From Methanobacteriota archaeon (GTDB taxonomy: Archaea > Thermoplasmatota > Poseidoniia > Poseidoniales > Poseidoniaceae), in NCBI GenBank assembly GCA_038104845.1, contig JAYOBJ010000005.1, forward strand, positions 8,809 through 72,808: 64,000 nt of DNA, in the 5' to 3' direction. The position numbers and the translations under genes are program-made. Of this stretch, positions 7,262-63,734 are shown one piece after another (positions within the stretch are counted from its first letter, which is position 1; the number at the start of each line of letters is the position of its first letter). The notes under the pieces were generated by a model that was not told the origin of the DNA, ran no database searches, and worked only from the letters and a program-made list of their open reading frames with translations.

Positions 7262-8785
7262 TCACTTCAACCCGTCCACACGGGCCATAATTTCGTTGGG
7301 GCGGACGTAGTACTCCGTAACGATTTGCGAAACTTGGTCGGCCTTACGGATGTCGTTAAGCACCATCCACTCAAGGATGCGCTTTCGAGTGCGGAGTTCA
7401 CGCCGCATCTCTTCTTGGCTGTAGTTGATTTTGACCATAATCTTCTCCAGCACGTACGATTTGCCGCTGAACACGAAATCATCGTTCGTCACGTCCCAAC
7501 GGAACACCTCGTTGGTGATGACTTCCATGGAGTTGGGGTCGATGCCGACGATTTCCACCAGCTGCTTGGTTCGTCGAACACGACGCCCGTTGATACGGGT
7601 TTGAATCTGGATCGCGCAGGCTTCAAGCGCCGGCAGCAACACACGCGGGATGTCGATTGGTTTGTTCTCCAATCGGTGAACGAGCGAAGGCACAGAGTCG
7701 GCGTGGACGGTGGAGTACGCACAATGCCCCGTGGCCATGGCTTGGAACAGCACATAGGCTTCAGCACCACGAATTTCACCGACAATGATGTACTCCGGAC
7801 GTTCGCGAAGCGCAGCTTTGAGGAGTTCGAACTCACCGATGACACCTTCTTTGGATTCACCACCGAAGCCCTGACGCGTCAACCCAGGAAGCCAGTTTGG
7901 CTGGGGGATGTTGACCTCACGGGTGGATTCGATGGAGACGATCTTCATTTGCCAAGGGATGAAGATGCACATGGCGTTGAGGGTGGTGGTCTTCCCGGAG
8001 GCGGTCCCGCCCACGAACAGCATGGGCACTTCGTTTTGGAAGGCGACCCACAGGTAAGCCACCATCAGCGAAGACATGGTCCGGAACGCCACGATGTCGG
8101 CCGGTGAAAACGGGTCGTCCTTGAATCGACGGATACAGAACGAGGACCCGCGTGTGGACACTTCTCGGCCCAATTTCATGACGATACGTGACCCGTCCAT
8201 CAAGGTCGCATCGAGCAACGGGTCGGCAACGGAGATGTGCTTGCCGCAACGCTGTGCAAGCTTGATCACGTAGGATTCGAGTTCGTGGTCCGTCTCCCAA
8301 ACACAAGTGGTTTCCACCGACTCAAACTTTCGATGATAGGCAAAAATGGGGACGTTGGTCCCGTCGAGGGAAATGTCTTCCACGTTGATGTCGTTCATCA
8401 GCACGTCCATCTTTCCATAGCCGATGAGGTCGCGGCGGAGGTAGTAAAACAGCTTGGACTTGGATTTCTTGTTGATTTTCATCGAGTAGGCCTTGATCAC
8501 CTTGTCCATGGCCGTGCGAACATAGGCTTCCGGGTTGGTATCGATTTCCTCAATGTTGGCCGTCAAGGACCGAATGAAAATGTCCATGATTTCTTCCCGT
8601 TGTTCCTGCTCTTTTTTGGTCAACGGGGGTTCAATGATTTGGTAGATGATGTTGAGGGTTTGCTTGTCGCGAACGATGCGAGCAAAGGCGTGAGGGGGCA
8701 TCACGGGGTACTTGTCCAGTTCGTCGTATTGTGCGCGCTGTTTGTTGCGCTGACGTCGTTCCCCACCGCCTTTTTTTCTCGCCAT
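7262..8785 (-). CDS. Type IV filament assembly ATPase (FlaI/ArlI/EpdL/TadA family)
   Basis: Walker A FVGGTASGKTTTLNA, Walker B/Asp box YIIVGEIRGAEAYVLFQAMATGH and His box STVHA. The basic N-terminus is typical of archaeal FlaI-like ATPases. Confidence 0.9.
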   Translation of the reverse strand: MARKKGGGERRQRNKQRAQYDELDKYPVMPPHAFARIVRDKQTLNIIYQIIEPPLTKKEQEQREEIMDIFIRSLTANIEEIDTNPEAYVRTAMDKVIKAYSMKINKKSKSKLFYYLRRDLIGYGKMDVLMNDINVEDISLDGTNVPIFAYHRKFESVETTCVWETDHELESYVIKLAQRCGKHISVADPLLDATLMDGSRIVMKLGREVSTRGSSFCIRRFKDDPFSPADIVAFRTMSSLMVAYLWVAFQNEVPMLFVGGTASGKTTTLNAMCIFIPWQMKIVSIESTREVNIPQPNWLPGLTRQGFGGESKEGVIGEFELLKAALRERPEYIIVGEIRGAEAYVLFQAMATGHCAYSTVHADSVPSLVHRLENKPIDIPRVLLPALEACAIQIQTRINGRRVRRTKQLVEIVGIDPNSMEVITNEVFRWDVTNDDFVFSGKSYVLEKIMVKINYSQEEMRRELRTRKRILEWMVLNDIRKADQVSQIVTEYYVRPNEIMARVDGLK

Positions 8786-48696: not shown

Positions 48697-51216
48697 ATGG
48701 TCGCCCCCTCCATCGTCCACGAACCGAGCGGAGCGATGGTGGTGCCGCTGGCCTTGGCCATGTTGACAGCTTGGCTGTTTTGGGATCGCATCGTTCCCCG
48801 ACAACTGCGCGGCCTCCAGGTGGCGTTCAAGACCTCCAGCACCCATTACGAAGTTCATCGCGTGACCCATTCGGTCGACGATGTCAAACACCTGCTCCGA
48901 CGTCGCGGCACCCGCTTCGGTGTGGCGTCGTACCTCATGGCGTTGGCTGGCATCTTGGTGCTTCTGTTCGACTTTTTGATGTATGCCAACGGAGGATCTG
49001 AGGGGATGCATGCGTCCGTGGTGGCGCTCGGCATTGTGTTCGTCGTGCTGCCTGCACTCGTGTCGAGCGGCACCTCACTCGGGGCCCAGGTGATCCGTCC
49101 ATTGGGGACCAGCAAAGCCACCCTTCAGAACAACACGCAGGCGCGGAACGGCGCCTACGTGGCCATGATGCTGGCATGGTTGGGGTTGGCCCTCGCTCTG
49201 GAAGCGCTGCTCAAGACCCAAGGCGTCCAAACGCAACGACGCTACAGTTTGGTCGCTCTGTTCGCCTTCAGTCCGGCGGTCTTGGCCTACGGCCGAATCT
49301 TGGGTTCGTCGTGGAACGCCCTGAAGGAGTCCTCCTCCCACATGGCCAACGGCCGGGCTTCGCCGTTTCACAACCATGTGCCTTCGGCCCGGCAGCAATT
49401 CGTGGCGCAGCTTGTGCACCTCAACCTCATCGTGATGCCGTTTGTGGCGATCAACACCCTGCTGTCCGTGCTGTTGTTGCTGTACAACCCCGACCTCTTC
49501 ACCCACAGCGATCGCGTGCTGGCGCTGCCCGAATATCGCCTGCAAAGCACCTACATGGAGGAGGGCGGTTTGCTTGGCTTCTGGTTGATCGAACTCTTTG
49601 CCCACATACCTGAGGAAGGCATTCGGGTGCCCATGGTGACGGCCGTGCTGTTGTTTTTGCTGATGAACGTCGCCATCGTGGGTTTCCTGTTCGTGTACGA
49701 AGTGGCCCGCATTCTGTTTCTTGATGTACAGGATTTCGCCGGCCGAGGTGGCATTCGCTTGGCGGACAGCCGTCTGCTGCGTGCCGAACCTGTTCAACAA
49801 GCCACGGTCTTGAATTTCTGCTTCACCGGATTTGCCGGTCAATCCATGCTTCTGCTCGCCTTGGCGATGGTCACCTTCTGGGATTCCACCTACCTGCCCC
49901 AAGGGGCAGCCTGCGGCACCTGGGAGACCAGCTTGTGTGCTGTGCTCGAAAAGAACATGCTTGAAGAATTGACGTGGATGCTGGCTGCAGGCGGTCAAAT
50001 CGCATTCCTGGCGGTGTGGTCGGTGTCGCGCAGTCGTTCACGAACCTTGAGCGAATTCACGTTCGATGCGTCCATGGACGAGGACCGTACCCGACTGCGC
50101 AGCATGAGCGACATGATCTACCTCAAGCAGCGACCCATCAACGACCTCATCGGCGAGGGCGACTGGCAGAAGGCCCTCAGTCGGTTTGATGAAGTGAGTC
50201 AAGGAAACATCGACACCCTGGTCGGCTTGGACATGATCCGACGCGCCCATGCAGGGATGGTGCTGAACGCAGGGTTGGGTCGCTGGGATGAGGCGGAAGA
50301 ATTGGCCATCGATCTGTTGGCCATACAGGGCGGACGGGGCGCCGAAGCAACGCGCATGTTCCTGTGCGCCGCCAGCCTGGCCCAGCGCGACCTTCGAGAA
50401 GCTGAGCCAAGGTTGGATCTGTTGCCCGAGCACGACGTGGAGGGTGCGAGGTTGCGCTGGTTCGCCAGCCTCATGAACCCCAAACGTCGGCTGGAAGAGC
50501 ACGCATCCTCCATGCTCGCCATCGACCCCATCAGCCGAGAAAACAAGGCGCTCTTGGAGGCGTACGCCACCCAGCAACTTCGCCAACCCAACCTCGTCAT
50601 GAACAAACCCGTCAACCGGATGTTTTTCTTGGGCCACCTTGCTCGCCTTCGGCTGGACGGGCAATCCGAACATGCCCTCGACCTGCTGGAATCGGCCATG
50701 AAAACCGTGGACCACGATTGGGTCCAAGCCAAGGTGGTTCAATGCCTGCTGAACATGGATGCGGGAAGGGTGAACACAGCGGTGCGCCAAATCGACGATT
50801 TGGCCACCAAGCACCCGCGTCACCCCCATGTTCGAGCGGCGCTCAACTTGATGGCCACATTGGGCCACACCAAAATGCCACCGCGGGAGGACACCAACAT
50901 GCAGTGGGCAACCGAAGGCGACACGGACTGGCGACACGCGTGGTCGGTTCACAACGTGAGCGTTCCCCCCGCCTTGGACCAGCAACACCTGCGCGAACAC
51001 GCATGGCAAGCCAACGCATGGGTGGGATGGGGAAGCAAAGCCATCAGCGTATCGACCTACAAAAAAGCGCAAAAGCACCTGCCGAATCAACTTCCGCTCG
51101 GCCTCCACCTCCACCTTTCCGGCGTGGTTACCACCGTTCAAGGCCAACCCGTCGACCTTGGTTTCCCCGGGTTCATGGACCTCAAGAAAGCCAAGGACCG
51201 GGGCCTCATGGACTGA
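48697..51216 (+). CDS. Hypothetical polytopic membrane protein with C-terminal helical-repeat (TPR-like) domain
   Basis: 839 aa. There are about 10 hydrophobic helices in the first ~450 aa, then alpha-helical repeat-like sequence (GDWQKALSRFDEV..., GRWDEAEELAIDLL...). It starts 9 nt after the thrS stop. Confidence 0.6.
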   Translation: MVAPSIVHEPSGAMVVPLALAMLTAWLFWDRIVPRQLRGLQVAFKTSSTHYEVHRVTHSVDDVKHLLRRRGTRFGVASYLMALAGILVLLFDFLMYANGGSEGMHASVVALGIVFVVLPALVSSGTSLGAQVIRPLGTSKATLQNNTQARNGAYVAMMLAWLGLALALEALLKTQGVQTQRRYSLVALFAFSPAVLAYGRILGSSWNALKESSSHMANGRASPFHNHVPSARQQFVAQLVHLNLIVMPFVAINTLLSVLLLLYNPDLFTHSDRVLALPEYRLQSTYMEEGGLLGFWLIELFAHIPEEGIRVPMVTAVLLFLLMNVAIVGFLFVYEVARILFLDVQDFAGRGGIRLADSRLLRAEPVQQATVLNFCFTGFAGQSMLLLALAMVTFWDSTYLPQGAACGTWETSLCAVLEKNMLEELTWMLAAGGQIAFLAVWSVSRSRSRTLSEFTFDASMDEDRTRLRSMSDMIYLKQRPINDLIGEGDWQKALSRFDEVSQGNIDTLVGLDMIRRAHAGMVLNAGLGRWDEAEELAIDLLAIQGGRGAEATRMFLCAASLAQRDLREAEPRLDLLPEHDVEGARLRWFASLMNPKRRLEEHASSMLAIDPISRENKALLEAYATQQLRQPNLVMNKPVNRMFFLGHLARLRLDGQSEHALDLLESAMKTVDHDWVQAKVVQCLLNMDAGRVNTAVRQIDDLATKHPRHPHVRAALNLMATLGHTKMPPREDTNMQWATEGDTDWRHAWSVHNVSVPPALDQQHLREHAWQANAWVGWGSKAISVSTYKKAQKHLPNQLPLGLHLHLSGVVTTVQGQPVDLGFPGFMDLKKAKDRGLMD

Positions 51217-52974
51217 TCAAACGCGTCGACGCAAGCGCTCCATGCAGGCATCGGCCTCGGCGAGGTGGCCCAAGCACGCCTCGATGTCGCTGACGCCCAG
51301 TGCTTCCCCCGCCAACGCCACGGCTTGCTCGCATGCACGACGGTCGTCGTCCTCCACGCCGATGTTGGAGGCATCGCATTGGTTGCGCAGGATTCGCCAA
51401 CCGTCGTTGACGAAATCGTAGAGTTCCAAAGCCTCGTCTGTGTCTTGACCGGCCTTGTCAAGGGTGGTGGTCATGCGCTCCAAGAGGGTGGCAGCGTGCG
51501 ACCATTGTTGCGCTTGTGCGGCCGATTCAATCTCGGCCAAGCGCTGATGCCAATCCGCTTCATCGCTTCGTCCCTCGAAACGTTGGACGAGTTGCTTCTT
51601 CTGCTTCATGGCTCGACGAACATCGTCCATGGCCCGGCGCTCGCGCTCCAAGGTCCGAACCACACCATCGGCCAAACCGATGGCTTGAGCGGCATTCCCT
51701 TGGTCCAACGCTTCATCCGCCTGAACGAGCCGGTCCGTCAATTCGACCACATCAAGGCCGTCGGTGGCGTTCAGTTGGCGCCGGGCCTCCTTGACCGAGG
51801 CAGCAGCGCGATCCAGCGCCTCACCGTCCGCTTCGAGTTGTGGCGGAATCACGACGGCAAACTCGAAGGCCTCCTTGGGTTGCTCGGCGTTGAGTTTCGT
51901 ACGTGCATCGCTCAGCAGTTCGTGCAAATGCGCCACCCCCGCTCCACGCTGACCGTCCAGCGCGCGTGCCGCTGCTGCGATGGCTTGCTCGGCACGCGCC
52001 CACCATTCAATGACATCGTGGGCCCGACGTTTGGCCTGACGGAAGAGCTGTTCACCTTCACGAAGCGCACCCAATTCCACCTCCCGGACACCCATGGCGT
52101 AGGCTTTGCGAGGGCGCTTGACGATGGGAGCAAGGGCTTCGGCGGCCTCCACAGCCTCCAGGGACGCAAGGCGAACAGCATCCACATCGCCCGCCAGCGA
52201 AACGGCTCGGTTCATGTCCTCTTCGCATTCATCCAAGACCCGCATGCCGTACTGGACATCGAGGTGCCCCTCTTCCTTGGCCGTCGTCAGGAGGCTCGAT
52301 GCCTGTGCGACGGCATCACCGTTGGCCTTCATCGCCAACAAGCGAAGTTCGAGGTCGTTCAAGCGTCGTCGGAACACCTTGCGAAGTTCACGGTCCTCGT
52401 CCCCAGCAAACCAATGGTGCACGGTTTCGGCCACGGCCAACACGAGCACGGCAAGACCGAGCGCACCCGCAGCGGTGTCCATGCGTTCGCCGGTGAGCAC
52501 CAGCACACCACCGGAAAGGCACCCAACACCGGTCATCAAGGACCGAAACCTCAGCACCCCGAACGAACCCCGAAGGACAGTGGTGGACGTGCGGCGGCAG
52601 GCAAGGGCTGCGGACATCACCAAGGCGCTTCCAACCAAACCCACCGCATCCGTGCTGTTGAGGCCAGTGACGCTGAGCACGGCAAGGACCGGCCACGCCA
52701 CCGAAGCCGCCGCTCCAAGCCGCGAACGAGCGGAAGGAGCGTCGACCGCGAGATCTTGGAGGAAGATGCCCCACAGCAGCAGCAGCAAAGGGGCCCCGAA
52801 ACTCGTCAAATCAACCGAGCGGCCCGACATCAAATCGTCAATGGACGGCCAGGCCAGCCAAGCAGCCGATGCGAGCATCAACAAAGCGGTCAGCATTGTC
52901 ATGGACTCGACCGACCGTTCACGACGCGCACGTTCGGCTTCGATGGCCGAATCCGTGTCCGCCCACGTCACCAT
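51217..52974 (-). CDS. Hypothetical membrane protein with long cytoplasmic all-helical domain
   Basis: 585 aa. There are about 6 N-terminal hydrophobic helices, then ~390 aa of Ala/Glu/Arg/Leu-rich helical sequence. No family recognised. Confidence 0.55.
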   Translation of the reverse strand: MVTWADTDSAIEAERARRERSVESMTMLTALLMLASAAWLAWPSIDDLMSGRSVDLTSFGAPLLLLLWGIFLQDLAVDAPSARSRLGAAASVAWPVLAVLSVTGLNSTDAVGLVGSALVMSAALACRRTSTTVLRGSFGVLRFRSLMTGVGCLSGGVLVLTGERMDTAAGALGLAVLVLAVAETVHHWFAGDEDRELRKVFRRRLNDLELRLLAMKANGDAVAQASSLLTTAKEEGHLDVQYGMRVLDECEEDMNRAVSLAGDVDAVRLASLEAVEAAEALAPIVKRPRKAYAMGVREVELGALREGEQLFRQAKRRAHDVIEWWARAEQAIAAAARALDGQRGAGVAHLHELLSDARTKLNAEQPKEAFEFAVVIPPQLEADGEALDRAAASVKEARRQLNATDGLDVVELTDRLVQADEALDQGNAAQAIGLADGVVRTLERERRAMDDVRRAMKQKKQLVQRFEGRSDEADWHQRLAEIESAAQAQQWSHAATLLERMTTTLDKAGQDTDEALELYDFVNDGWRILRNQCDASNIGVEDDDRRACEQAVALAGEALGVSDIEACLGHLAEADACMERLRRRV

Positions 52975-55603: not shown

Positions 55604-55670
55604 CATGAATGTTCTTGATGAATTTTACAATTACAAAATCAAATTTTGTATTGAAAATTTTGATGTGATG
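55604..55670. promoter_or_regulatory. Sharply AT-rich island with palindromes in the divergent gap between the thiolase and Roadblock genes
   Basis: The sequence is catgaatgttcttgatgaattttacaattacaaaatcaaattttgtattgaaaattttgatgtgatg. It contains the 8-bp inverted repeat TACAAAAT-caa-ATTTTGTA (55632-55650) and the palindrome AAAATTTT (55654-55661). The flanking DNA is GC-rich. Confidence 0.45.
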
Positions 55671-55851
55671 CGTGAAGGAATGAATCGCTTGGAAATCTGG
55701 CTTGGCGGTGGCTTGACAGTGAGCGATTTCAAGGGCAGGCCCGCGTGAATTTCAGTTGGAATTTCCACACGACCCTGCAAATCGCCTGATTTGGCCAACC
55801 AAGCGGTAAACTTCTTGAAGCCTACAGCAGTGTGGTGACTCTTGAGCCACC

Positions 55852-56211
55852 ATGCTGAACCGTGTGTTGACCGCCCTCATGGATCGTGAATCGCTTCGGC
55901 AAGTGGCGATGATCGACGACATGGGTCGGTTGCTGGCCGGCGTGACCGAACCCGGCCAGGCACCCGAGGCGCTTGATCAGATACCGCTGCTCGTCACCGC
56001 ACTCGAAGCGCAGCAACACCTTGGCTTGGGCGAGCTCCATGAAATCTGGACCGAAGGTGAGGAGCGAACCTTGCTCGACCTGATCACGCCCTACAGGGTG
56101 CTGATTCTCCAAGGCCAACAGGGTCGTTTGGGTCGATGGCGACACACCGTCGATCACCTTCGCTCAGCGCTCGCACACGCCCGAATCTCAGAGGTGAATC
56201 AGCATGTTTGA
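55852..56211 (+). CDS. Roadblock/LC7 (MglB-like) domain protein
   Basis: A 119-aa protein whose pattern parallels MglB/Roadblock. LRQVAMIDDMGRLLAG resembles ALLIDRKGFVLA. The central helix is LLVTALEAQQHLGLGELHEI, followed by EGEERTLLDLITPYRVLILQG and a terminal helix. The stop overlaps the next gene start by 8 nt. Confidence 0.6.
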   Translation: MLNRVLTALMDRESLRQVAMIDDMGRLLAGVTEPGQAPEALDQIPLLVTALEAQQHLGLGELHEIWTEGEERTLLDLITPYRVLILQGQQGRLGRWRHTVDHLRSALAHARISEVNQHV

Positions 56212-59200
56212 ACTCCCGCAAGGTCAACCGTTTGAAGACGACGTTACGCTTGAAGATGGCACCTTGTTGCCGTTCGCTCACGGGGCCATCACCACCACGG
56301 TGGGTCGACGGAAAACCCCCAGCGGCCACCGTTTGGTGCGAGGTGGCAAGCCCGTGGCCTGGATGGCGAAGGATGCCAACGGTGACCTGTTGGGGGGCCT
56401 CGAAGCGCGGCTCGAACTGGAACGTCTTGAGCGCGAATCCAACACCAAGTGGGCGGCCACCGTCTACACCATCCGAGGATTGGGTGAAGTGGCGGATGCC
56501 GTTCCGGAAGCGTTTGAGCACCAAGCAGACCGCCAAGGGCTGGGAGCACGCGTCAACCACGTTGAACGCTTGCTCGCAAGAGACCTCTCATCGGTGGTCG
56601 AGCAGTTGGCCGCTCACGTCACGGTCCGCGGTGCACTGGCCATGGACGGAGGCTTGCTCATCGATCATGCCGGCGACCTGCCCGGTCTCGGAGAGGCTGA
56701 AGCCGTGTGCGCCCACCTCCACGATTTGCTCAGCGGCATGAACGCCGAATCCCTGACCAACGAATTGGGGCTGCACGGCCAGGGCCACATCACGTTGCAC
56801 AGCGACAAAGGCTCCCTGCTGTTGGCCCAAAGCGGTACGATAGCGCTGGCAGCATGGACCGAGAAGGACGCCAACCACGCTCGACTCCTCTCCGGGGCAT
56901 CCTTGGCGTTGGAAGGTGAGTTGGGTGCGGCCGGGCATGGGGGGGCCGCGTTGCCCGAGGGGTTCACGCTGCGCGAGGGCAAGGGCGGTCCGGATGCTGT
57001 GATCTCCATGCTCAAAGCTGCCATGGACGAATCCGTCACCGGCCACGTCCAAGCAGGCGCATCGAGCAAGGCCGTTTCCATGGTGCTCGATCGGGGCGTA
57101 CCCGTCGCGTGCTGGGCGACGTCCACCGAAAGCATGGACGAGGCCATGCGGATGTTCACCGACCCAAAACGGAAGCTCAAGTTGATTCGTTTCCCCTCCG
57201 GAACCATCGTTTCGCCTCAATCCGGCACCGTGGAGGGGTTCACATTGGCGGGTTTCTGCAAGGACCTGGCCACCGTCCGCACCCGTTCAGAGGCGAGGCA
57301 AACCACCCTCACGGCGATGTTGAACGAGGCGTTTGGATTCGAAATGGGCCTTCAAGAACTCAAATCAGCCCGAGCCAAAATGGCCTTCGTTTCGTCGGGC
57401 GCTGATGTGGCAGAACCCCTTCCCGTGATGAAGGACCAGGCCGTTGCGGCCATGGACGCTGGGTTGCGTCGACGGCTCGAACAGTCACAGCAACGCGAAG
57501 ATGCCCTCACCCGGGAGAAGGCCAAACTTGAACGGAAGGTGGCTCAACTTGACCAGCAACGACACGCAGCCGACATCGTGGCAAGGGAAGCCACGGAAAC
57601 CCGGCAAGAACACACCCTCGCCCTCGAAGAAGCCAACGCATCCCTCAACCGCATGCAGGTTGACTTGGCACAGGCTCGAGCCGTGGCTGAAGAAGCCGAT
57701 GCCCGCGCCGAGCGGCTGATGCGACGGGTCAACGAACTCGAGCACCAAGTCAGCGAACGAGCAGCAGAACTGGCCAAGGCCCTCGGCGAATCCTCGTCGA
57801 GTGCAGCCCTTCACAACACCATCACCGACCTGTCCTTGAAGGAAGCCGAGTTGAAAGCCAACCTCGACGAGGGGAGCCAGCGCCTGGCCAATGTCCGGCA
57901 GCAAAGCGACGACGAAGAGCGTCGTTTGCGTGTGCTGACCGAGCAGGTGAGCACGGCCCGGGAGCGACATGCCCGGGTGCAGGCCGACCTTCTGTCGTTG
58001 CAGGAACAAGTCCATCTTCAACAGGTGGAACTTGAGGCATCGAAGTCGGAGGTCAAGATGGCGCAAACCCGCTTGGACGAGGACCGTGAACGCCGATCGG
58101 AAGAGGAGGCTCGTCGCGCCCACGTGCAGGCTGAACTTCGTGAATTGATGGACGAACGTCGTGTGCTGCTTCGGGAATTGGGCGACTTGGGCGCCCGTCG
58201 AGGGCATGCTGAGGCTGAGTTGTCGTCCTTGGTGAACAAAGCCACCGTTCTCGCCGAAGCGCATGAGGAAGCCTTGGCGGACATCAAAGAGGCCGAGCGC
58301 CTTCGTGCTCGATTGGCAGAAGAACCCTTGGCCCAAGCCTTGCTCAACGACAACGCCACCTTCGAGGGGCTGGGTCCTGTGCTCAACCGCCTGGAACACG
58401 CCCGAACCTTGGGCTATTCGGTGACGATGCTCGACCGCGCCGTTGAACGTTCGCTGCAGGTCATCCAGTCCACGGTGGACCATGTTGCCTCGACACCTCG
58501 CCACCTTCTTTCCAGTGAGGTCATGACCCTGTTGGAACGTCAAGTCCCCCAAACTGCGGGTGCGGTAAGGGGCTTGGCACGGTGGTCCGTCCAGCAACGG
58601 CTTGAACACCAACTCGGTGAAACGGTCAATCACGTGGTTCTGGACCTCGAGCATTTGCTGGAGGATTTCGATCGCTCGATCACGATGCTTCGGCGGATCC
58701 GGCACGTGTTGGAACAAGTGCAACGACTTGGCGCTCCCGAGCATGAGGTTCGCGCCCTGCTGGCGAACTGCCAGCGGCCCGAAGCACTGCCATCGTTGGC
58801 GCAAGGCACCCGCCGCCTGATTCAAGTGGCCCTCGACGACATTTACCTCGAAGCCGACCAGCGCAACGCTGGCGAAGCCATGGCGCTGGAGGAAACCGCC
58901 AAGGTTCTCGAAGAATTGATCTCGCAAATCGACGCCTCAGGTTTGGCCGACGGCATCCCGCAAGGCCACCTTTGGGACTTCCAGCGGGATGGATTGTTGC
59001 CCTTTGAACGGGAATCCATTCCCGAGACCCAACGGTTACCGGTCACAGCAAGCATGCTGGAGGATTTGGAGCCGCACCTGTTGGCTGAAGATCACCTTGA
59101 GGTGGCCGCAACGGTGACATCGTCCGACGTTGACGATGAGGGTTGGTCTTCACTTCCGCCACCGCCGTTGGACGAAAGCCCGGCCACATCACCTTCACCA

Positions 59201-59386
59201 ACACCTCTCGAACCCACCCCCGAAGTCTTGGCGAGCCCCGAAGACGAACGGGCATCGTTGGAAGCCGAGTTGGCAAGGATCGACGCAGCATGGAGCCACC
59301 GCGAAGCCAAACCCTCACCGTTGACCAACGCCAAGGATGTTGCCTTGACCGACCTCGAAGCTCGCTTGTCAGAACTTGAATTCTGA
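56204..59386 (+). CDS. Giant multidomain protein: N-terminal unknown region, Roadblock/LC7-like domain, PATAN/DUF4388-like domain, ~290-aa coiled coil, helical domain, Pro/Glu/Ser-rich tail
   Basis: 1060 aa. Residues ~128-232 (VRGALAMDGGLLIDHAGDLP...ITLHSDKGSLLLAQSGTIALAAW) fit the Roadblock pattern. Residues ~263-335 (PDAVISMLKAAMDESVTGHVQAG..AVSMVLDRGVPVACWA...MDEAMRMF...LKLIRFP) resemble DUF4388. Residues ~418-708 are heptad-like and E/R/A/L/Q-rich. The last ~100 aa are acidic and proline-rich. Confidence 0.7.
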   Translation: MFELPQGQPFEDDVTLEDGTLLPFAHGAITTTVGRRKTPSGHRLVRGGKPVAWMAKDANGDLLGGLEARLELERLERESNTKWAATVYTIRGLGEVADAVPEAFEHQADRQGLGARVNHVERLLARDLSSVVEQLAAHVTVRGALAMDGGLLIDHAGDLPGLGEAEAVCAHLHDLLSGMNAESLTNELGLHGQGHITLHSDKGSLLLAQSGTIALAAWTEKDANHARLLSGASLALEGELGAAGHGGAALPEGFTLREGKGGPDAVISMLKAAMDESVTGHVQAGASSKAVSMVLDRGVPVACWATSTESMDEAMRMFTDPKRKLKLIRFPSGTIVSPQSGTVEGFTLAGFCKDLATVRTRSEARQTTLTAMLNEAFGFEMGLQELKSARAKMAFVSSGADVAEPLPVMKDQAVAAMDAGLRRRLEQSQQREDALTREKAKLERKVAQLDQQRHAADIVAREATETRQEHTLALEEANASLNRMQVDLAQARAVAEEADARAERLMRRVNELEHQVSERAAELAKALGESSSSAALHNTITDLSLKEAELKANLDEGSQRLANVRQQSDDEERRLRVLTEQVSTARERHARVQADLLSLQEQVHLQQVELEASKSEVKMAQTRLDEDRERRSEEEARRAHVQAELRELMDERRVLLRELGDLGARRGHAEAELSSLVNKATVLAEAHEEALADIKEAERLRARLAEEPLAQALLNDNATFEGLGPVLNRLEHARTLGYSVTMLDRAVERSLQVIQSTVDHVASTPRHLLSSEVMTLLERQVPQTAGAVRGLARWSVQQRLEHQLGETVNHVVLDLEHLLEDFDRSITMLRRIRHVLEQVQRLGAPEHEVRALLANCQRPEALPSLAQGTRRLIQVALDDIYLEADQRNAGEAMALEETAKVLEELISQIDASGLADGIPQGHLWDFQRDGLLPFERESIPETQRLPVTASMLEDLEPHLLAEDHLEVAATVTSSDVDDEGWSSLPPPPLDESPATSPSPTPLEPTPEVLASPEDERASLEAELARIDAAWSHREAKPSPLTNAKDVALTDLEARLSELEF

Positions 59387-59388
59387 GC

Positions 59389-59643
59389 GTGGTTCCCATG
59401 GCCACCCCTGAGACCTTGATGGGACGTGAAGAACGGCTCGGTCCCGCAGCACCGCTGTGGCGGGAACGCATCTTGTTGGCGCTCGTGGTGACCGGGGTCG
59501 TCTTGGCTGGTCCAACGGTGCACAACGCCCTCGGCACCGGCTGGGGGTGGGGCATCGTGGCCTATGTCAGCCTTGCGCTGGGGCTGTTGGGCGTGTCCGA
59601 ATCGATCGGGCGTTGGCTCCAACGTCGCCTCAAAGCTGACTGA
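59389..59643 (+). CDS. Hypothetical small two-TM membrane protein
   Basis: A GTG start lies 2 nt after the giant gene stop, with an alternative ATG at 59398. It has two hydrophobic helices (ILLALVVTGVVLAG; GWGIVAYVSLALGLLGV) and a basic C-terminus. Confidence 0.4.
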   Translation: MVPMATPETLMGREERLGPAAPLWRERILLALVVTGVVLAGPTVHNALGTGWGWGIVAYVSLALGLLGVSESIGRWLQRRLKAD

Positions 59644-60847
59644 AATCCTTCGACGGCGGTTCGACTTGAACCGGAGCCAAACGGGATTGGACAAAACCAA
59701 TCACTCGCTGCCATGGGATGAAAAAGCGGAGCAGGGCCATCATCCCAAGGAACAGCAGCGCGGAGATCACAAGGCCGTAGGTGAGGGTCAATTCGATCGA
59801 TTCCGATACTTGACTCGCCCATTGGCTTCCGGTCGTGTCCGAGACCAGGGTCAGCAGCACCTTGTGGAACCCGAGTGCCATCATGGTAGCGGCTCCAGTG
59901 AACCCGAGGAACAGGAAGGTATGGCGAAGGTGGGTGTTGAGCACGTTGTCCATTTGTCGAACGTATTCAGGGTCACGCTTGCATGACTCGGGAAGACGGA
60001 ACGCGTATTCCAGGTTTCGAATCACGCCGTAGGCTGCTTCCTGGAACACCATGATGAGGATGGCGATCATGATGAGACTGAACTGCTCCTGGGTCACCAG
60101 TTTGAGCCCGAGGAACCCAATGGTCGGGTTGGACGATTGACTTTCGAGCGTGGTCAAGGCGCCACCGTAGTCACCCAATTGGCCTCGAATCAGCGGGAAG
60201 GTCAGGAGCGCATGGATGCCCAGGAACAACAGCGTGAACCCGATGGACCAAGCGATGGAACGGCGGGACAGTCCCCAAATGCCGCGTGTCCCCATGATCA
60301 CCGGCAGGAGGTAGATGAAGAGAATCATCAGCGAGAGAATCATCAACAACGGCCACTGCAAGGTCTCAAGTTCGGAATCCGTCGGCAAACGGAGGTCAAA
60401 CGTGAACAGCATGCCCGCCAACCAGGACACCACGAGCCGTCCGATGAGCAGCACCATCAAGCCAACGATGAAGCCCAACTTCAGTCGCTGTTGGACTTTC
60501 GGCGATTGGAAGGCGATGAAGGCCATGACACCGCCCAGCCCAACGCCCAGCACCAGCGGAACCACAAATCGACCCATTCCCGAACGGCCCTCGCCCGTGA
60601 GCCAATCGCCGATGGGCAGTTGGTCGGCGATGAGCAATTCGATGGTGTCAAACACGATGGTGTGGTCGATGGATTCAACCACGTAGGTGGACACAACTTC
60701 GAGGTACATGGCAACGAGCGCCACGGTGGCAAGCACCTGAAGCGCCAAAATTTGCCATTGACGGCGCAGATTCTTCAGATGCAAGGTTCGCGGCCGAGCG
60801 CTGCCTTCCAACAGCACATCGGATTGCAAACCAACCTCGCCTGCCAT
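59630..60847 (-). CDS. Hypothetical polytopic membrane protein (last gene of the DUF4350/DUF58 cluster)
   Basis: 405 aa with roughly 9-10 hydrophobic helices. It starts 1 nt after the DUF58 gene stop. No family recognised. Confidence 0.6.
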   Translation of the reverse strand: MAGEVGLQSDVLLEGSARPRTLHLKNLRRQWQILALQVLATVALVAMYLEVVSTYVVESIDHTIVFDTIELLIADQLPIGDWLTGEGRSGMGRFVVPLVLGVGLGGVMAFIAFQSPKVQQRLKLGFIVGLMVLLIGRLVVSWLAGMLFTFDLRLPTDSELETLQWPLLMILSLMILFIYLLPVIMGTRGIWGLSRRSIAWSIGFTLLFLGIHALLTFPLIRGQLGDYGGALTTLESQSSNPTIGFLGLKLVTQEQFSLIMIAILIMVFQEAAYGVIRNLEYAFRLPESCKRDPEYVRQMDNVLNTHLRHTFLFLGFTGAATMMALGFHKVLLTLVSDTTGSQWASQVSESIELTLTYGLVISALLFLGMMALLRFFIPWQRVIGFVQSRLAPVQVEPPSKDFSQL

Positions 60848-60848
60848 C

Positions 60849-62102
60849 TCAGTACCCCCTCACTTGCATCAATGCCTGGGACAAATCCATGTCGGGCATC
60901 CAATCGATGACCTGCGCCCCCGATCCGGCCAGGGTGGTCAGACGGTTTTGTCGCTCGAGCTTCAACACCTCATACGACATCCGAGGAATGCGACTGACCA
61001 GCCGCTCAAAGTCCACACTGGATGGCGACAGCACGGTGACTTCATGGCCTCGTCCAACGAGGTCGCGTACCGCTGCCGGGACCGTCCCGTCCCCTTCACA
61101 GGAGGAAATGATGAACACCGGGCTGCCGCGACTGAACCGGCCGCTGAGGGAATTGGTCACGGCTTGCAGAGGCATGGCGCCCTTGGGTGTCACGCCAGCA
61201 AGGGCGCTGAGGATCTTGAAGTACTGCTTGTCACCGGTGTCCGGCGGCAGATAGGCGAGTTTTTCGTCATAGATGGCCAGCGCCACCGAATCGCGCCGCT
61301 TGAGGAAGAACGCCGCAAGACTGGCGGCCGATACCGTTCCCATCTCAAGCGGGTTCTTGAGGACCGTACCGATGCGAGCCAGATCTCGGCTGTCAAGAAT
61401 GAGGTACAGATCGGTGACAGCGTCTCGGCACTTTTCGTTGACCATCAAATCGCCCGTTCGAGCGTAGGCCTTCCAATTGATGTTTTTGAACGGGTCACCG
61501 GGGACATACTCTCGAAGCGAGTAAAATTCCGACCCTTGACCGGGTGTTCGCAAGGTGGTGGCACCGGTGTACATCTTCGGCGTGCGGCTGCGCAAAATCG
61601 CTTCCTCCACGTTCTTGATTTGGGGGAAGATGACGATGTCGCTGTGGTGGTTGACGAACATTTCCTCCACACCGAGGTTGAACGTGTTGCGGGCACGCAA
61701 CGATACGGGACCGATGGAATAGTGGCCCCGCAAGGGGCAGCGGAGCACGTAGCGGATGCGAGCGCTCTCACCGGGCTTGAGGTTCAACTGCATTTGATTG
61801 AGCCCGCTGCGCAACTTCATTTCGTGGGGGATGTTGTCGTAGACGTCCAGCATCTGAGTCTTTCGATTGCTTCGGTTCGTCACCAACAACTCGACATACA
61901 AATCGTCGCCTTTGTAGAGGTTATCAGCCGAGAGGGTGCGTTGGACTTCGACTTCACCGTGGCCTGAAATCCACGAGTTGACGACGATGAAGGCCACCAG
62001 CGTGAGCCCCAAGATCATCATCTGCTGGTTGGAGATCATCATCCCGATGAGCACCAGCGCAATCCCGCCGGTGAAGGTGAAAGCTGCCTTACGCGTCCAC
62101 AC
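60849..62102 (-). CDS. DUF58 domain protein
   Basis: It has two N-terminal TM helices and then the DUF58 core REYVPGDPFKNINWKAYARTGDLMVNEKCRDAVTDLYLILDSRD. Confidence 0.75.
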   Translation of the reverse strand: MWTRKAAFTFTGGIALVLIGMMISNQQMMILGLTLVAFIVVNSWISGHGEVEVQRTLSADNLYKGDDLYVELLVTNRSNRKTQMLDVYDNIPHEMKLRSGLNQMQLNLKPGESARIRYVLRCPLRGHYSIGPVSLRARNTFNLGVEEMFVNHHSDIVIFPQIKNVEEAILRSRTPKMYTGATTLRTPGQGSEFYSLREYVPGDPFKNINWKAYARTGDLMVNEKCRDAVTDLYLILDSRDLARIGTVLKNPLEMGTVSAASLAAFFLKRRDSVALAIYDEKLAYLPPDTGDKQYFKILSALAGVTPKGAMPLQAVTNSLSGRFSRGSPVFIISSCEGDGTVPAAVRDLVGRGHEVTVLSPSSVDFERLVSRIPRMSYEVLKLERQNRLTTLAGSGAQVIDWMPDMDLSQALMQVRGY

Positions 62103-62111
62103 GGTACCACC

Positions 62112-63734
62112 TCAGCTGCGCCCCCACGCTTTGATGCGTTTTACAAGGGCCACGGTTTGCTCCAAACTGTAGCGTCCGCTGGTGTCCACAGCGAACTTGG
62201 AGAGCACGGGGTCGTTGATCATCGAGACGAGTTCGTTGGCCCGCATGTTCTGGAATTCTTCGCGCGTCAACCCGTTTTGATTGCGGACCTTGGACAGGAA
62301 GACCTGCCGGATTTTGTCCACCTTGGCGTAGTAAGCATACCGATTGGCGTCGCCAAAACCGTAGTAGATGATGCTGAAGACGTGCCGCCAAGGTTCGGGG
62401 TCGCGCTTTCGAATGAGGACCGCTTCAAAGACGATGAAGAGGATGAGGAACAGCAGCAACATGGCCAACCCTTCACCGGTGAAGTACACCAGCAGGAAGT
62501 ACACCGTGTTGTAGGAATCGGCGGCCAGAGCGCTCTGCGGGTGCCGTGATTCGTCAAAAATCACCATGGCATTTACAGCGGGTTGTCCCGCCTCCTCCGG
62601 AACCTCGCTCATCAACGCCTCTGCAATGAAATCGAGGGCCCATTTCCGGTTGTCGTTGGCGGGCATTTGGGTGTCGGTTGGTCCGTATTCACCATCGTTG
62701 AACCCTTCGTAGTCGTACATGGCGTTGATCAATGCCGACCCGTCGGAGATGAACACAACACGCCCGCCGTCGGTTGGCGAGCAGCTGGCGCGAGCGCAGA
62801 CCTCGATGCTGAGGTTGAATTGACCCCAACGGTCGGGTGTTTCCGGTGTGATTTCATTGCCAACCCAAATTTCACCGTCACCGTTGACGTCGACCGTCGC
62901 TTCGTTGCTCGTGATGGCACGCACCGACACCTCTGGAAGGGGGCCACGGACTCCGGGTATGACCTCTAGACCGGTGATGTTGTTGACCAACATTTGGTAG
63001 CTGGCGTTGAACGCCAGCGTGCCCGCCTCCAGGTGGTGCGCACACAACCCTGCTTCCTGTTCAGTCAGTTGTTGGCCGTTCAAAGCTGCGCACGGGTGGC
63101 TTCCGGCTCTGTTGGTGTTCGCCCATCGCTCGTGCGAGGTCAGTGTGGTCGGGTCAAGTTCCGTGCCGTTCATCCCGCACGGGCTGGCTTGCATGCACAT
63201 CCAGATGTAGTTGTAATCCAGGCTGGCCGCATACGTGGTGTCGAACACCTGTTCACCGGTGTAGCGGATCCCAAACGCTTCGGCAATCGTGCTCGCAAAC
63301 CCGTAATCCTCGAGCACCAAAGCGGTACCACCTGCCTCGACGAATTCGACAATGGCGTTGATCTCGGAGGGGGAGAATCCCTTGCCGGATGCCACGCTGA
63401 TGAAGCCGTCGTCATCAAACTGCGGCAGCGTGAGCGTGTCCCGTTCCACCCCGGCAAGGACGTACGTGGTGTTGCGGGGGTCGTCAATGTCGGCCAACAA
63501 CAACGGGCTGCTCACCAACGAGTGGGTTTCAATGCCCATGGCTTTGATGTCGGACCGGAACGCCGACATGTCGTTCCAATCGTCGTCGTAAGCAGAAAGC
63601 TGATTGGTGGCGCTCAGGTTGATAAAATTGGACAACACGGTCAACAGCAAAACGCCCAGCACAGCCCAAAATGCCACCTGCAAGGCGACCCTTCGGGCGT
63701 TGATGGAAGCGAACGGGCCAGACATGAGCATCAC
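62112..63734 (-). CDS. DUF4350-like membrane-anchored protein
   Basis: After an N-terminal TM helix comes DDDWNDMSAFRSDIKAMGIETHSL...TYVLAGVERD...INAIVEFVEAGGTALVLEDYG, the DUF4350-like pattern. It also has a large Cys-containing ectodomain, a C-terminal TM helix and a cytoplasmic tail. Confidence 0.55.
   Translation of the reverse strand: MMLMSGPFASINARRVALQVAFWAVLGVLLLTVLSNFINLSATNQLSAYDDDWNDMSAFRSDIKAMGIETHSLVSSPLLLADIDDPRNTTYVLAGVERDTLTLPQFDDDGFISVASGKGFSPSEINAIVEFVEAGGTALVLEDYGFASTIAEAFGIRYTGEQVFDTTYAASLDYNYIWMCMQASPCGMNGTELDPTTLTSHERWANTNRAGSHPCAALNGQQLTEQEAGLCAHHLEAGTLAFNASYQMLVNNITGLEVIPGVRGPLPEVSVRAITSNEATVDVNGDGEIWVGNEITPETPDRWGQFNLSIEVCARASCSPTDGGRVVFISDGSALINAMYDYEGFNDGEYGPTDTQMPANDNRKWALDFIAEALMSEVPEEAGQPAVNAMVIFDESRHPQSALAADSYNTVYFLLVYFTGEGLAMLLLFLILFIVFEAVLIRKRDPEPWRHVFSIIYYGFGDANRYAYYAKVDKIRQVFLSKVRNQNGLTREEFQNMRANELVSMINDPVLSKFAVDTSGRYSLEQTVALVKRIKAWGRS

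Follow-up and report, generated by a model that had tools for sequence, protein, structure and literature searches.

A conserved Poseidoniales operon for a free Roadblock/LC7 protein, a giant Roadblock and coiled-coil protein, and a small two-helix membrane protein

A 64,000-nucleotide (nt) stretch from an archaeon of the family Poseidoniaceae (assembly GCA_038104845.1, contig JAYOBJ010000005.1, positions 8,809 to 72,808; hereafter the window, to which all coordinates refer) contains three co-directional genes on the forward strand, designated g1, g2, and g3. g1 (55852-56211) encodes a 119-amino acid (aa) stand-alone protein of a divergent Roadblock/LC7 family, g2 (56204-59386) starts inside the end of g1 and encodes a 1060-aa multidomain protein, and g3 (59389-59643) encodes a small protein with two hydrophobic helices, 84 aa in length when read from a GTG codon. 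All three open reading frames (ORFs) were found where the initial annotation, prepared from the sequence letters, had placed them, and the architecture that it had proposed, namely a free Roadblock protein, a giant Roadblock/coiled-coil protein, and a protein with two transmembrane (TM) segments, was borne out in 80 species-level genomes. The preferred reading, to which we assign about even confidence, is that the trio forms a lineage-specific, vertically inherited operon of Poseidoniales (Marine Group II, MGII) for a membrane-associated coiled-coil scaffold with a Roadblock dimer platform at its core. Each of the parts, namely the Roadblock fold, the coiled coil, and the small TM protein, is already known. 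Not found described, and in this sense new, are the arrangement of domain A, Roadblock, domain C, hinged coiled coil, and domain D in g2, as well as the combination of g2, fixed across Poseidoniales, with a stand-alone Roadblock protein and a protein of two TM segments. No description of this module in Poseidoniales/MGII was found in the searchable literature, in line with the earlier remark that no described archaeal system matched it.

Relatives of g2 were found in 147 genomes of GTDB species, and synteny was counted in the best 80 of these 147 loci. Every one of the best 80 with a lineage named below the phylum belonged to Poseidoniales, Poseidoniaceae, or Poseidonia, and the MG-II chromosome CM001443 was included among them. 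g1 was located directly upstream of g2 in 79 of the 80 genomes, the single exception lying at a contig end, and g3 followed downstream on the same strand in 76, with the misses accounted for by three contig ends and one truncated g2 (L030). The trio is thus syntenic in related genomes. The distances from the stop codon of g1 to the start codon of g2 ranged from -8 to +11 nt, and the g2 orthologs had a median length of 1057 aa (76 complete genes). In the window, the g1/g2 junction is ATGTTTGA, with an overlap of 8 nt; the tight coupling that had been proposed therefore stands for this junction, and the gap of 2 nt claimed between g2 and g3 is more probably one of 11 nt. The G+C content of the operon region (~60%) is ordinary for the window. 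Locus L011 retains the pair intact despite rearranged upstream genes and contains an uncalled g3 ORF. Among the remote contigs, L098 encodes a g1 that is 23% identical and a g2 N-terminus that is 33% identical (E=1e-20), and L013-L015 keep the pair together with a downstream gene that starts with MFSLPSG or MIELPNG; these contigs hint that the trio may be more widely distributed. Two of the 76 complete g2 genes were short (641 and 811 aa in L030 and L069, respectively), which probably reflects frameshifts or assembly errors. The long-read 'pilon' contigs L008 and L009 have g2 genes that are split by frameshifts.

The assignment of g1 to the Roadblock family was obtained at the level of the family. 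A set of 62 clusters was assembled by adding to the query the divergent loci L008 and L009, in which 113-aa genes occupy the g1 position; 16 of its 62 members individually matched PF03259 (Robl_LC7; best E=2.5e-5), and the family profile aligned with the Roadblock/LC7 structures 7yh1_D and 7f8m_A (E of ~0.03, positions 3-93). An exhaustive search of 1.8 billion representatives with the g1 profile returned only 58 proteins. Of 19 mostly weaker full-length matches to the profile, ten were Robl_LC7 proteins (best E=3.6e-13) and two matched MAPKK1_Int, the Pfam model of LAMTOR3; the remote relative P0138 matched PF03259 with E=1.4e-10 over profile positions 5-90 of 91. Four giant proteins (P0096, P0098, P0108, and P0115; 1078-4761 aa), each of which matched g1-profile positions 79-103 up to 15 times, were rejected as relatives of g1 because they are Thr/Ser/Gly-rich compositional artefacts. 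Since family members, the family profile, and remote relatives all link to PF03259, sequence comparison establishes that the g1 family is homologous to Roadblock through a transitive, statistically sound chain. The earlier description of g1 as Roadblock/MglB-like therefore holds for the family through its PF03259 matches and profile links. Furthermore, the Joint Genome Institute (JGI) labels the g1 ortholog P0078 as a 'predicted regulator of Ras-like GTPase activity'. The family carries a clade-specific conserved motif, GRxxRWRH, after the last core strand. A g1 profile from five close homologs matched no solved structure in the PDB, and the AlphaFold model of g1, calculated from a shallow 6-sequence alignment, had a predicted local distance difference test (pLDDT) score of 45.

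A second Roadblock domain, domain B, is embedded in g2 (56585-56908, forward strand, aa 128-235). The N-terminal 412 residues of g2 were represented by 24 homolog clusters, and an AlphaFold model of these 412 residues, based on 21 sequences, contained three globular units. In this model, domain B comprises a helix (128-137), two strands (141-148 and 151-157), a second helix (165-187), three strands (195-199, 204-210, and 213-219), and a last helix (225-235); the order alpha-beta-beta-alpha-beta-beta-beta-alpha is that of the Roadblock/MglB topology. Foldseek comparison of the model with the PDB gave 75 matches at E<=0.001, and the best 50 of the 75 were all Roadblock, LAMTOR, or MglB structures (E=9e-6 to 5e-4) with a Foldseek probability of 1.00 and target TM-scores of 0.54-0.71. 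The matches include Asgard Roadblock proteins (9jue, 7f8m, and 7yh1), LAMTOR2/3, a Streptomyces protein (3kye), and dynein LC7, as well as MglB (1j3w, 6h5b, and 6hjm). No viral structure was matched significantly by the same model, with weak longin and profilin-like matches only. Sequence profiles pointed in the same direction. Orthologs of domain B matched PF03259 with E=0.0035-0.004 over positions 5-89 of 91, the best at 17.3 bits against a gathering threshold of 23; the best PDB match of the domain B profile was a Robl_LC7 structure (7f8f_A, E=0.077, 86 residues); and hhalign aligned domain B with remote Roadblock proteins over 94 collinear columns (E=2e-4). The profile similarity between domain B and the g1 family was weak (hhalign E=3e-4), and the shallow g1 profile gave no hhalign signal against g2. 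JGI places the g2 ortholog P0012 in the Roadblock/LC7/MglB family, also as a 'predicted regulator of Ras-like GTPase activity'. The embedded Roadblock-like domain that had been placed at aa ~128-232 is thus supported by the model, Foldseek, and the profiles at about 128-235.

Several points weigh against the reading of the trio as a Roadblock scaffold operon. The window g1 lies below the Pfam thresholds, with no match in Pfam or NCBIfam scans, and domain B of the window g2 has no Pfam match to PF03259; scans of all three window proteins against Pfam and NCBIfam gave no Roadblock or PATAN match, with coiled-coil noise only. Because the window proteins themselves are without a Robl_LC7 match, the evidence for the Roadblock assignments comes from the family level and from structure. 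The g2 model was built from 21 sequences; its pLDDT averages 75, and it contains loops of low confidence. The Foldseek output was without query ranges, and its matches were placed on aa 128-235 because the topology of the model and the sequence-level matches agree. Finally, synteny is weak evidence of a functional link, since gene order is kept throughout Poseidoniales in the entire neighbourhood, a block that runs from NcsA through g1, g2, and g3 to a 405-aa TM protein, DUF58, DUF4350, PRC, and CDC48.

The same conservation of gene order would be expected if the three genes were neighbours by descent only and had no joint function. However, the tight junctions are a stronger argument for linkage than the synteny: distances of -8 to +11 nt were kept across 79 genomes, and the pair persists in L011 next to rearranged genes. 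Two Roadblock modules also stand side by side in the operon, and an unrelated lineage has a comparable pair of overlapping genes, so that an association by descent alone is very unlikely. This analogous pair was found in another archaeal lineage (L096:272-1725 and L097:4108-5561), where a 115-aa Roadblock gene (PF03259 E=1.4e-10) and the gene of a larger protein share 4 nt; this larger protein has 369 aa and a Roadblock domain at its C-terminus (278-344, E=9e-6). The 369-aa partner was considered as a short form of g2 and rejected, as it is unrelated in sequence and its Roadblock domain is C-terminal. Because a free Roadblock protein and a larger one are paired independently in the lineage of L096/L097, paired Roadblock genes may be a recurring design. 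The neighbours of the pair in L096/L097 include a prepilin-type peptidase and a PIN-T2SSE-KH ATPase.

Roadblock proteins of the MglB type invite the explanation that the Roadblock pair serves as a GTPase-activating protein, a guanine nucleotide exchange factor, or a platform for a Ras-like GTPase encoded elsewhere, giving a switch for polarity, motility, or membrane identity in which the coiled coil positions the module. The presence of MglB and LAMTOR2/3 among the Foldseek matches and the JGI labels of P0078 and P0012 as Ras-like GTPase regulators are consistent with this explanation, as is the fact that a coupled MglA exists for over half of the MglB homologs (PMC4316618). On the other hand, a six-frame scan for Walker A motifs and a Pfam search detected no small GTPase with a canonical P-loop in the window, which upholds the earlier statement that none is encoded nearby. 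Nine ORFs in the window carry a Walker A motif, and none is a Ras-like GTPase; some have no Pfam match, and the others include an AAA_33 kinase, a T2SSE ATPase, an ABC transporter, Ham1, ParA/Mrp, an M14 peptidase, and Sir2. No small GTPase was found within the ~10 kb flanks of the relatives examined either. An MglA-MglB module has a Ras-like GTPase within a few genes, and none lies at that distance here. Archaeal Group 4 MglA proteins are almost exclusive to methanogenic Euryarchaeota (PMC4316618), and within g2 the Roadblock domain ranks with the less conserved regions. A role as an MglB-type regulator is therefore unlikely. The absence of a linked GTPase is not exceptional in itself, because 328 of 749 prokaryotic MglB-family proteins (44%) were orphans in the survey of Wuichet and Sogaard-Andersen (PMC4316618); the initial annotation overstated the case in calling this absence unusual. 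A PilB/FlaI-type T2SSE ATPase (7262-8785, reverse strand; PF00437 E=1e-25, with PilB3_C) is encoded ~47 kb from the operon and would fit a motility-related regulator; this gene suggests, from its sequence family, a type IV filament or archaellum locus at that distance.

The two other globular units of the g2 model flank the Roadblock domain. Domain A (56204-56539, forward strand, aa 1-112) is a beta-rich N-terminal domain with strands at 26-33, 39-46, 49-56, and 81-87 (pLDDT 80-89 in the AlphaFold model). It contains an invariant basic motif, GRRKTPxGHRLVRxGR, and 31 of its 112 columns are invariant; a profile search found no sequence relative in the PDB or Pfam. Domain C (56990-57208, forward strand, aa 263-335) is modelled as a small unit consisting of a helix, three strands, a helix, and a strand. 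The initial annotation had compared this segment with DUF4388/PATAN, and this comparison was not upheld: PF14332 was matched by none of 14 family sequences at E<=10, nor by the window segment, and no sequence relative of domain C was found in the PDB. The only matches to recur were weak ones to VMAP-C (vWA-MoxR associated C-terminal, where vWA denotes von Willebrand factor A), obtained in 5 of the 14 sequences (E=0.016-0.04, ~35 residues).

These VMAP-C matches bear on the explanation that the trio is a regulator or scaffold accessory of the convergent vWA/MoxR-type membrane operon that encodes the 405-aa TM protein, DUF58, and DUF4350. This convergent block (59630-63734 and beyond, reverse strand), in which the 405-aa protein is multi-TM and which is followed by PRC-barrel and CDC48 genes in relatives, adjoins the trio in every genome examined, and the 3' ends of g3 and the 405-aa gene overlap by 14 nt. 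DUF58 is a vWA-like, MoxR-associated family. However, the convergent orientation implies separate transcripts, and the adjacency is little informative in a neighbourhood that is collinear order-wide. The VMAP-C matches are sub-threshold, short, and from closely related sequences, and no MoxR ATPase was found in the DUF58/DUF4350 block. An accessory role for this operon is accordingly quite unlikely.

The coiled-coil region of g2 (57455-58324, forward strand, aa 418-707) shows heptad-like periodicity and lies in a segment that is proline-free from 408 to 707. The long coiled coil proposed previously is present, and its description as uninterrupted over ~290 aa is not accurate, as there are two conserved breaks, one at ~526-545 (ALG-D/E-S, Ser-rich) and the other at 656-667 (LRELGDLGARRG), which leave two arms of ~110 aa each and a 40-aa connector. 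Such a protein recalls an SMC, Rad50, or MukB-like chromosome organiser, and NCBIfam SMC and Rad50 models as well as the PADLOC model JetC did match g2; the two equal ~110-aa arms on either side of a conserved break might in principle bend back on each other to form a hairpin. Nevertheless, the SMC model TIGR02168 matched only residues 354-700 (E=4e-7), with 28 bits against a cut-off of 567, the JetC/MukB-like matches were confined to residues 422-682, and the Rad50 match was likewise sub-threshold and limited to the coiled coil. A search for a Walker A motif in g2 found none, so that g2 is not an SMC-type ATPase, and neither an ATPase head nor a hinge was found. The SMC-like explanation is thus effectively refuted and of very low probability. 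The shallow g2 profile was swamped in the PDB by influenza HA2 and tropomyosin coiled coils. A defence-system identity was also considered and rejected, the sole PADLOC match of the trio and its neighbours being that of JetC to the coiled coil (17 bits); the fixed core-genome position of the operon across the order argues against a defence island.

Domain D (58325-59008, forward strand, aa 708-935), a near-invariant helical domain that follows the coiled coil, is the most constrained part of the system, above the Roadblock module, a feature that the initial annotation missed. Conservation was scored per column as at least 97% of one residue among 74 full-length orthologs, whose identity to the window g2 ranges from 52 to 92%. 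This level was reached by 94 of 123 columns in the first part of domain D (708-830) and by 64 of 105 columns in the second part (831-935), compared with 26 of 108 columns in the Roadblock domain (128-235). The invariant runs include LLERQVPQTAGAVRGL and RWSVQQRLE, and domain D remains 69-72% identical where g1 has fallen to 24-31% identity. Neither direct nor profile searches found a relative of domain D in Pfam or the PDB. This orphan domain probably represents the functional end of g2. The remainder of the protein (59009-59383, forward strand) consists of a variable, disordered, acidic Pro-rich linker (aa 936-1012) and a moderately conserved C-terminal amphipathic helix (1013-1060), with conservation of 0.45 for the linker and 0.69 for the helix, which carries the motif DDERAxLEEELARLDAxW. 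The last 100 aa of g2 contain 23 D/E and 6 K/R residues and 13 Pro, a composition that agrees with the acidic Pro-rich tail described previously.

The translation start of g3 is most likely the ATG at 59398, judging from the alignment of orthologs, which begin with MSEHETLMGRDER, compared with MATPETLMGREER in the window; this start gives a protein of 81 aa and an 11-nt gap to g2. Two hydrophobic segments were present in 36 of the 39 g3 sequences analysed, so that the 2-TM character assigned to gene 3 is a conserved one. Conserved motifs were observed at both ends (R-E..YPLW-ER at the N-terminus and E..GR..Q at the C-terminus), and K/R residues occur in both tails and not in the loop, a distribution that, under the positive-inside rule, suggests that both tails are cytoplasmic.

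The Roadblock structures that have been solved (LAMTOR2/3, MglB, and Asgard Roadblock) are homodimers or heterodimers, and we infer on this basis that the Roadblock modules of g1 and g2 pair with each other. In the preferred reading as a membrane-associated scaffold, and by analogy with these dimers, equimolar and translationally coupled g1 would pair with the Roadblock domain of g2, or would cap a g2-g2 pair. g2 would dimerise via its coiled coil, g3 would tether the assembly to the membrane with both of its tails in the cytoplasm, and the invariant domain D would be the end of the assembly in contact with a highly conserved partner in the cell. A nucleoside triphosphatase (NTPase) encoded elsewhere may be recruited or regulated by the Roadblock platform, although a GTPase-independent adaptor role is at least as likely as NTPase recruitment. 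A further reading, which is tentative and on balance improbable, is that the operon encodes a clade-defining, GTPase-independent, membrane-tethered filament or tether, in which the heterodimer of g1 and domain B would act purely as an assembly platform and domain D would sit on a core machine. In such a structure, the hinged ~290-aa coiled coil would span tens of nanometres from the g3 anchor, and domain D would engage the division, envelope, or chromosome machinery.

Comparison with known systems suggests, by analogy, that Roadblock scaffolds, for example Ragulator and the MglB-MglC module, come closest to how the operon would work. The best matches of g1 and domain B were Asgard Roadblock/LC7 proteins of the same fold and family (7F8M, 7F8F, 7YH1, and 9JUE). 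g1 resembles the stand-alone archaeal Roadblock/LC7 proteins in size (~115-120 aa), whereas, unlike them, the window proteins fall below the Pfam threshold, g1 has the GRxxRWRH motif, and the domain of g2 is instead embedded in 1060 aa between unknown domains and the coiled coil. The Roadblock fold is common to MglB, MglC, and RomY of Myxococcus xanthus, where paralog pairs (MglB-MglC) cooperate, and the MglA polarity system of this bacterium also uses coiled-coil partner proteins; in contrast, the present operon has no linked MglA-like GTPase, and its Roadblock domain is fused to the coiled coil. With Ragulator, the operon shares the presence of LAMTOR2/3 among the top structural matches of g2, the MAPKK1_Int (LAMTOR3) matches of two remote g1 relatives, and the concept of Roadblock heterodimers held at a membrane via a small anchor, which here would be g3. 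LAMTOR1 is a lipidated protein wrapped around the Roadblock dimers, whereas the anchor here would be a 2-TM protein. Furthermore, Rag-type GTPases with a C-terminal Roadblock domain do not occur here, and Ragulator lacks a coiled coil and domain D. The Streptomyces conservon protein CvnB (3KYE) was a fold match (Foldseek ranks 9, 40, and 43) and is likewise operon-encoded. Conservons include a histidine kinase and the Ras-like GTPase CvnD (PMC4316618), and both a histidine kinase and a CvnD-type GTPase are absent from this operon. SMC, Rad50, and MukB share with g2 a long coiled coil with internal breaks, but g2 is without their ATPase head, Walker A motif, and hinge.

The DNA directly 5' of g1 (55745-55851, forward strand) is a conserved non-coding region, of which ~110 nt before g1 were kept at the nucleotide level in an alignment of 78 genomes. 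It contains an invariant box CAGTTGG, which lies within the palindrome TTCCA-GT-TGGAA in most genomes, an invariant box AAACTTCTTGAAG(G/C)C with the palindrome CTTC-TT-GAAG, and an invariant box TTGAG, which is located 6-10 nt ahead of the g1 ATG. A GC hairpin between the boxes varies by clade (CCCCCTTTAGGGGG and others). To judge from the spacing of these elements, the region probably serves the operon as its core promoter and operator. A structured RNA was considered and rejected (RNAalifold energy of -0.64 kcal/mol, with no compensatory pairs), and no Rfam or tRNA match was found for the region. A regulon within the window was also rejected, as the upstream boxes recur there no more than by chance. 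Farther upstream, the intergenic region of NcsA and g1 contains an AT-rich element (55625-55665) with a double CAATTG box ~17 nt apart in relatives, which is likely a divergent promoter region. A perfect palindrome, TACAAAAT-CAA-ATTTTGTA, at 55632-55650 occurs in the window only and is not common to other genomes.

Two lineage-specific genes upstream of the operon are also kept in relatives. One (48697-51216, forward strand) encodes an 839-aa multi-TM protein with tetratricopeptide (TPR) repeats, and the other (51217-52974, reverse strand) encodes a 585-aa protein that has TM segments at its N-terminal end and an extended helical region; L010 carries two paralogs of this protein. BLASTP detected no relationship between g2 and either of these proteins.

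Poseidoniales are uncultured and are among the most abundant archaea of the surface ocean. To our knowledge, almost nothing is known of their cell biology, since they are uncultured. Genetic manipulation of these organisms is not possible. The operon described here is probably important to the cell, because it occurs in every genome that could be checked and one of its domains is conserved like core machinery. It provides a concrete example, from archaea other than Asgard, of Roadblock modules that form part of a large scaffold and occur with a second Roadblock protein and no linked GTPase. It also bears on the role of the many orphan prokaryotic Roadblock proteins, since, up to 2014, no experimental study had characterised an orphan MglB (PMC4316618). 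If the reading as a filament or tether were true, the operon would represent a new archaeal cytoskeletal or membrane-organising module that uses the same Roadblock part as eukaryotic Ragulator and dynein.

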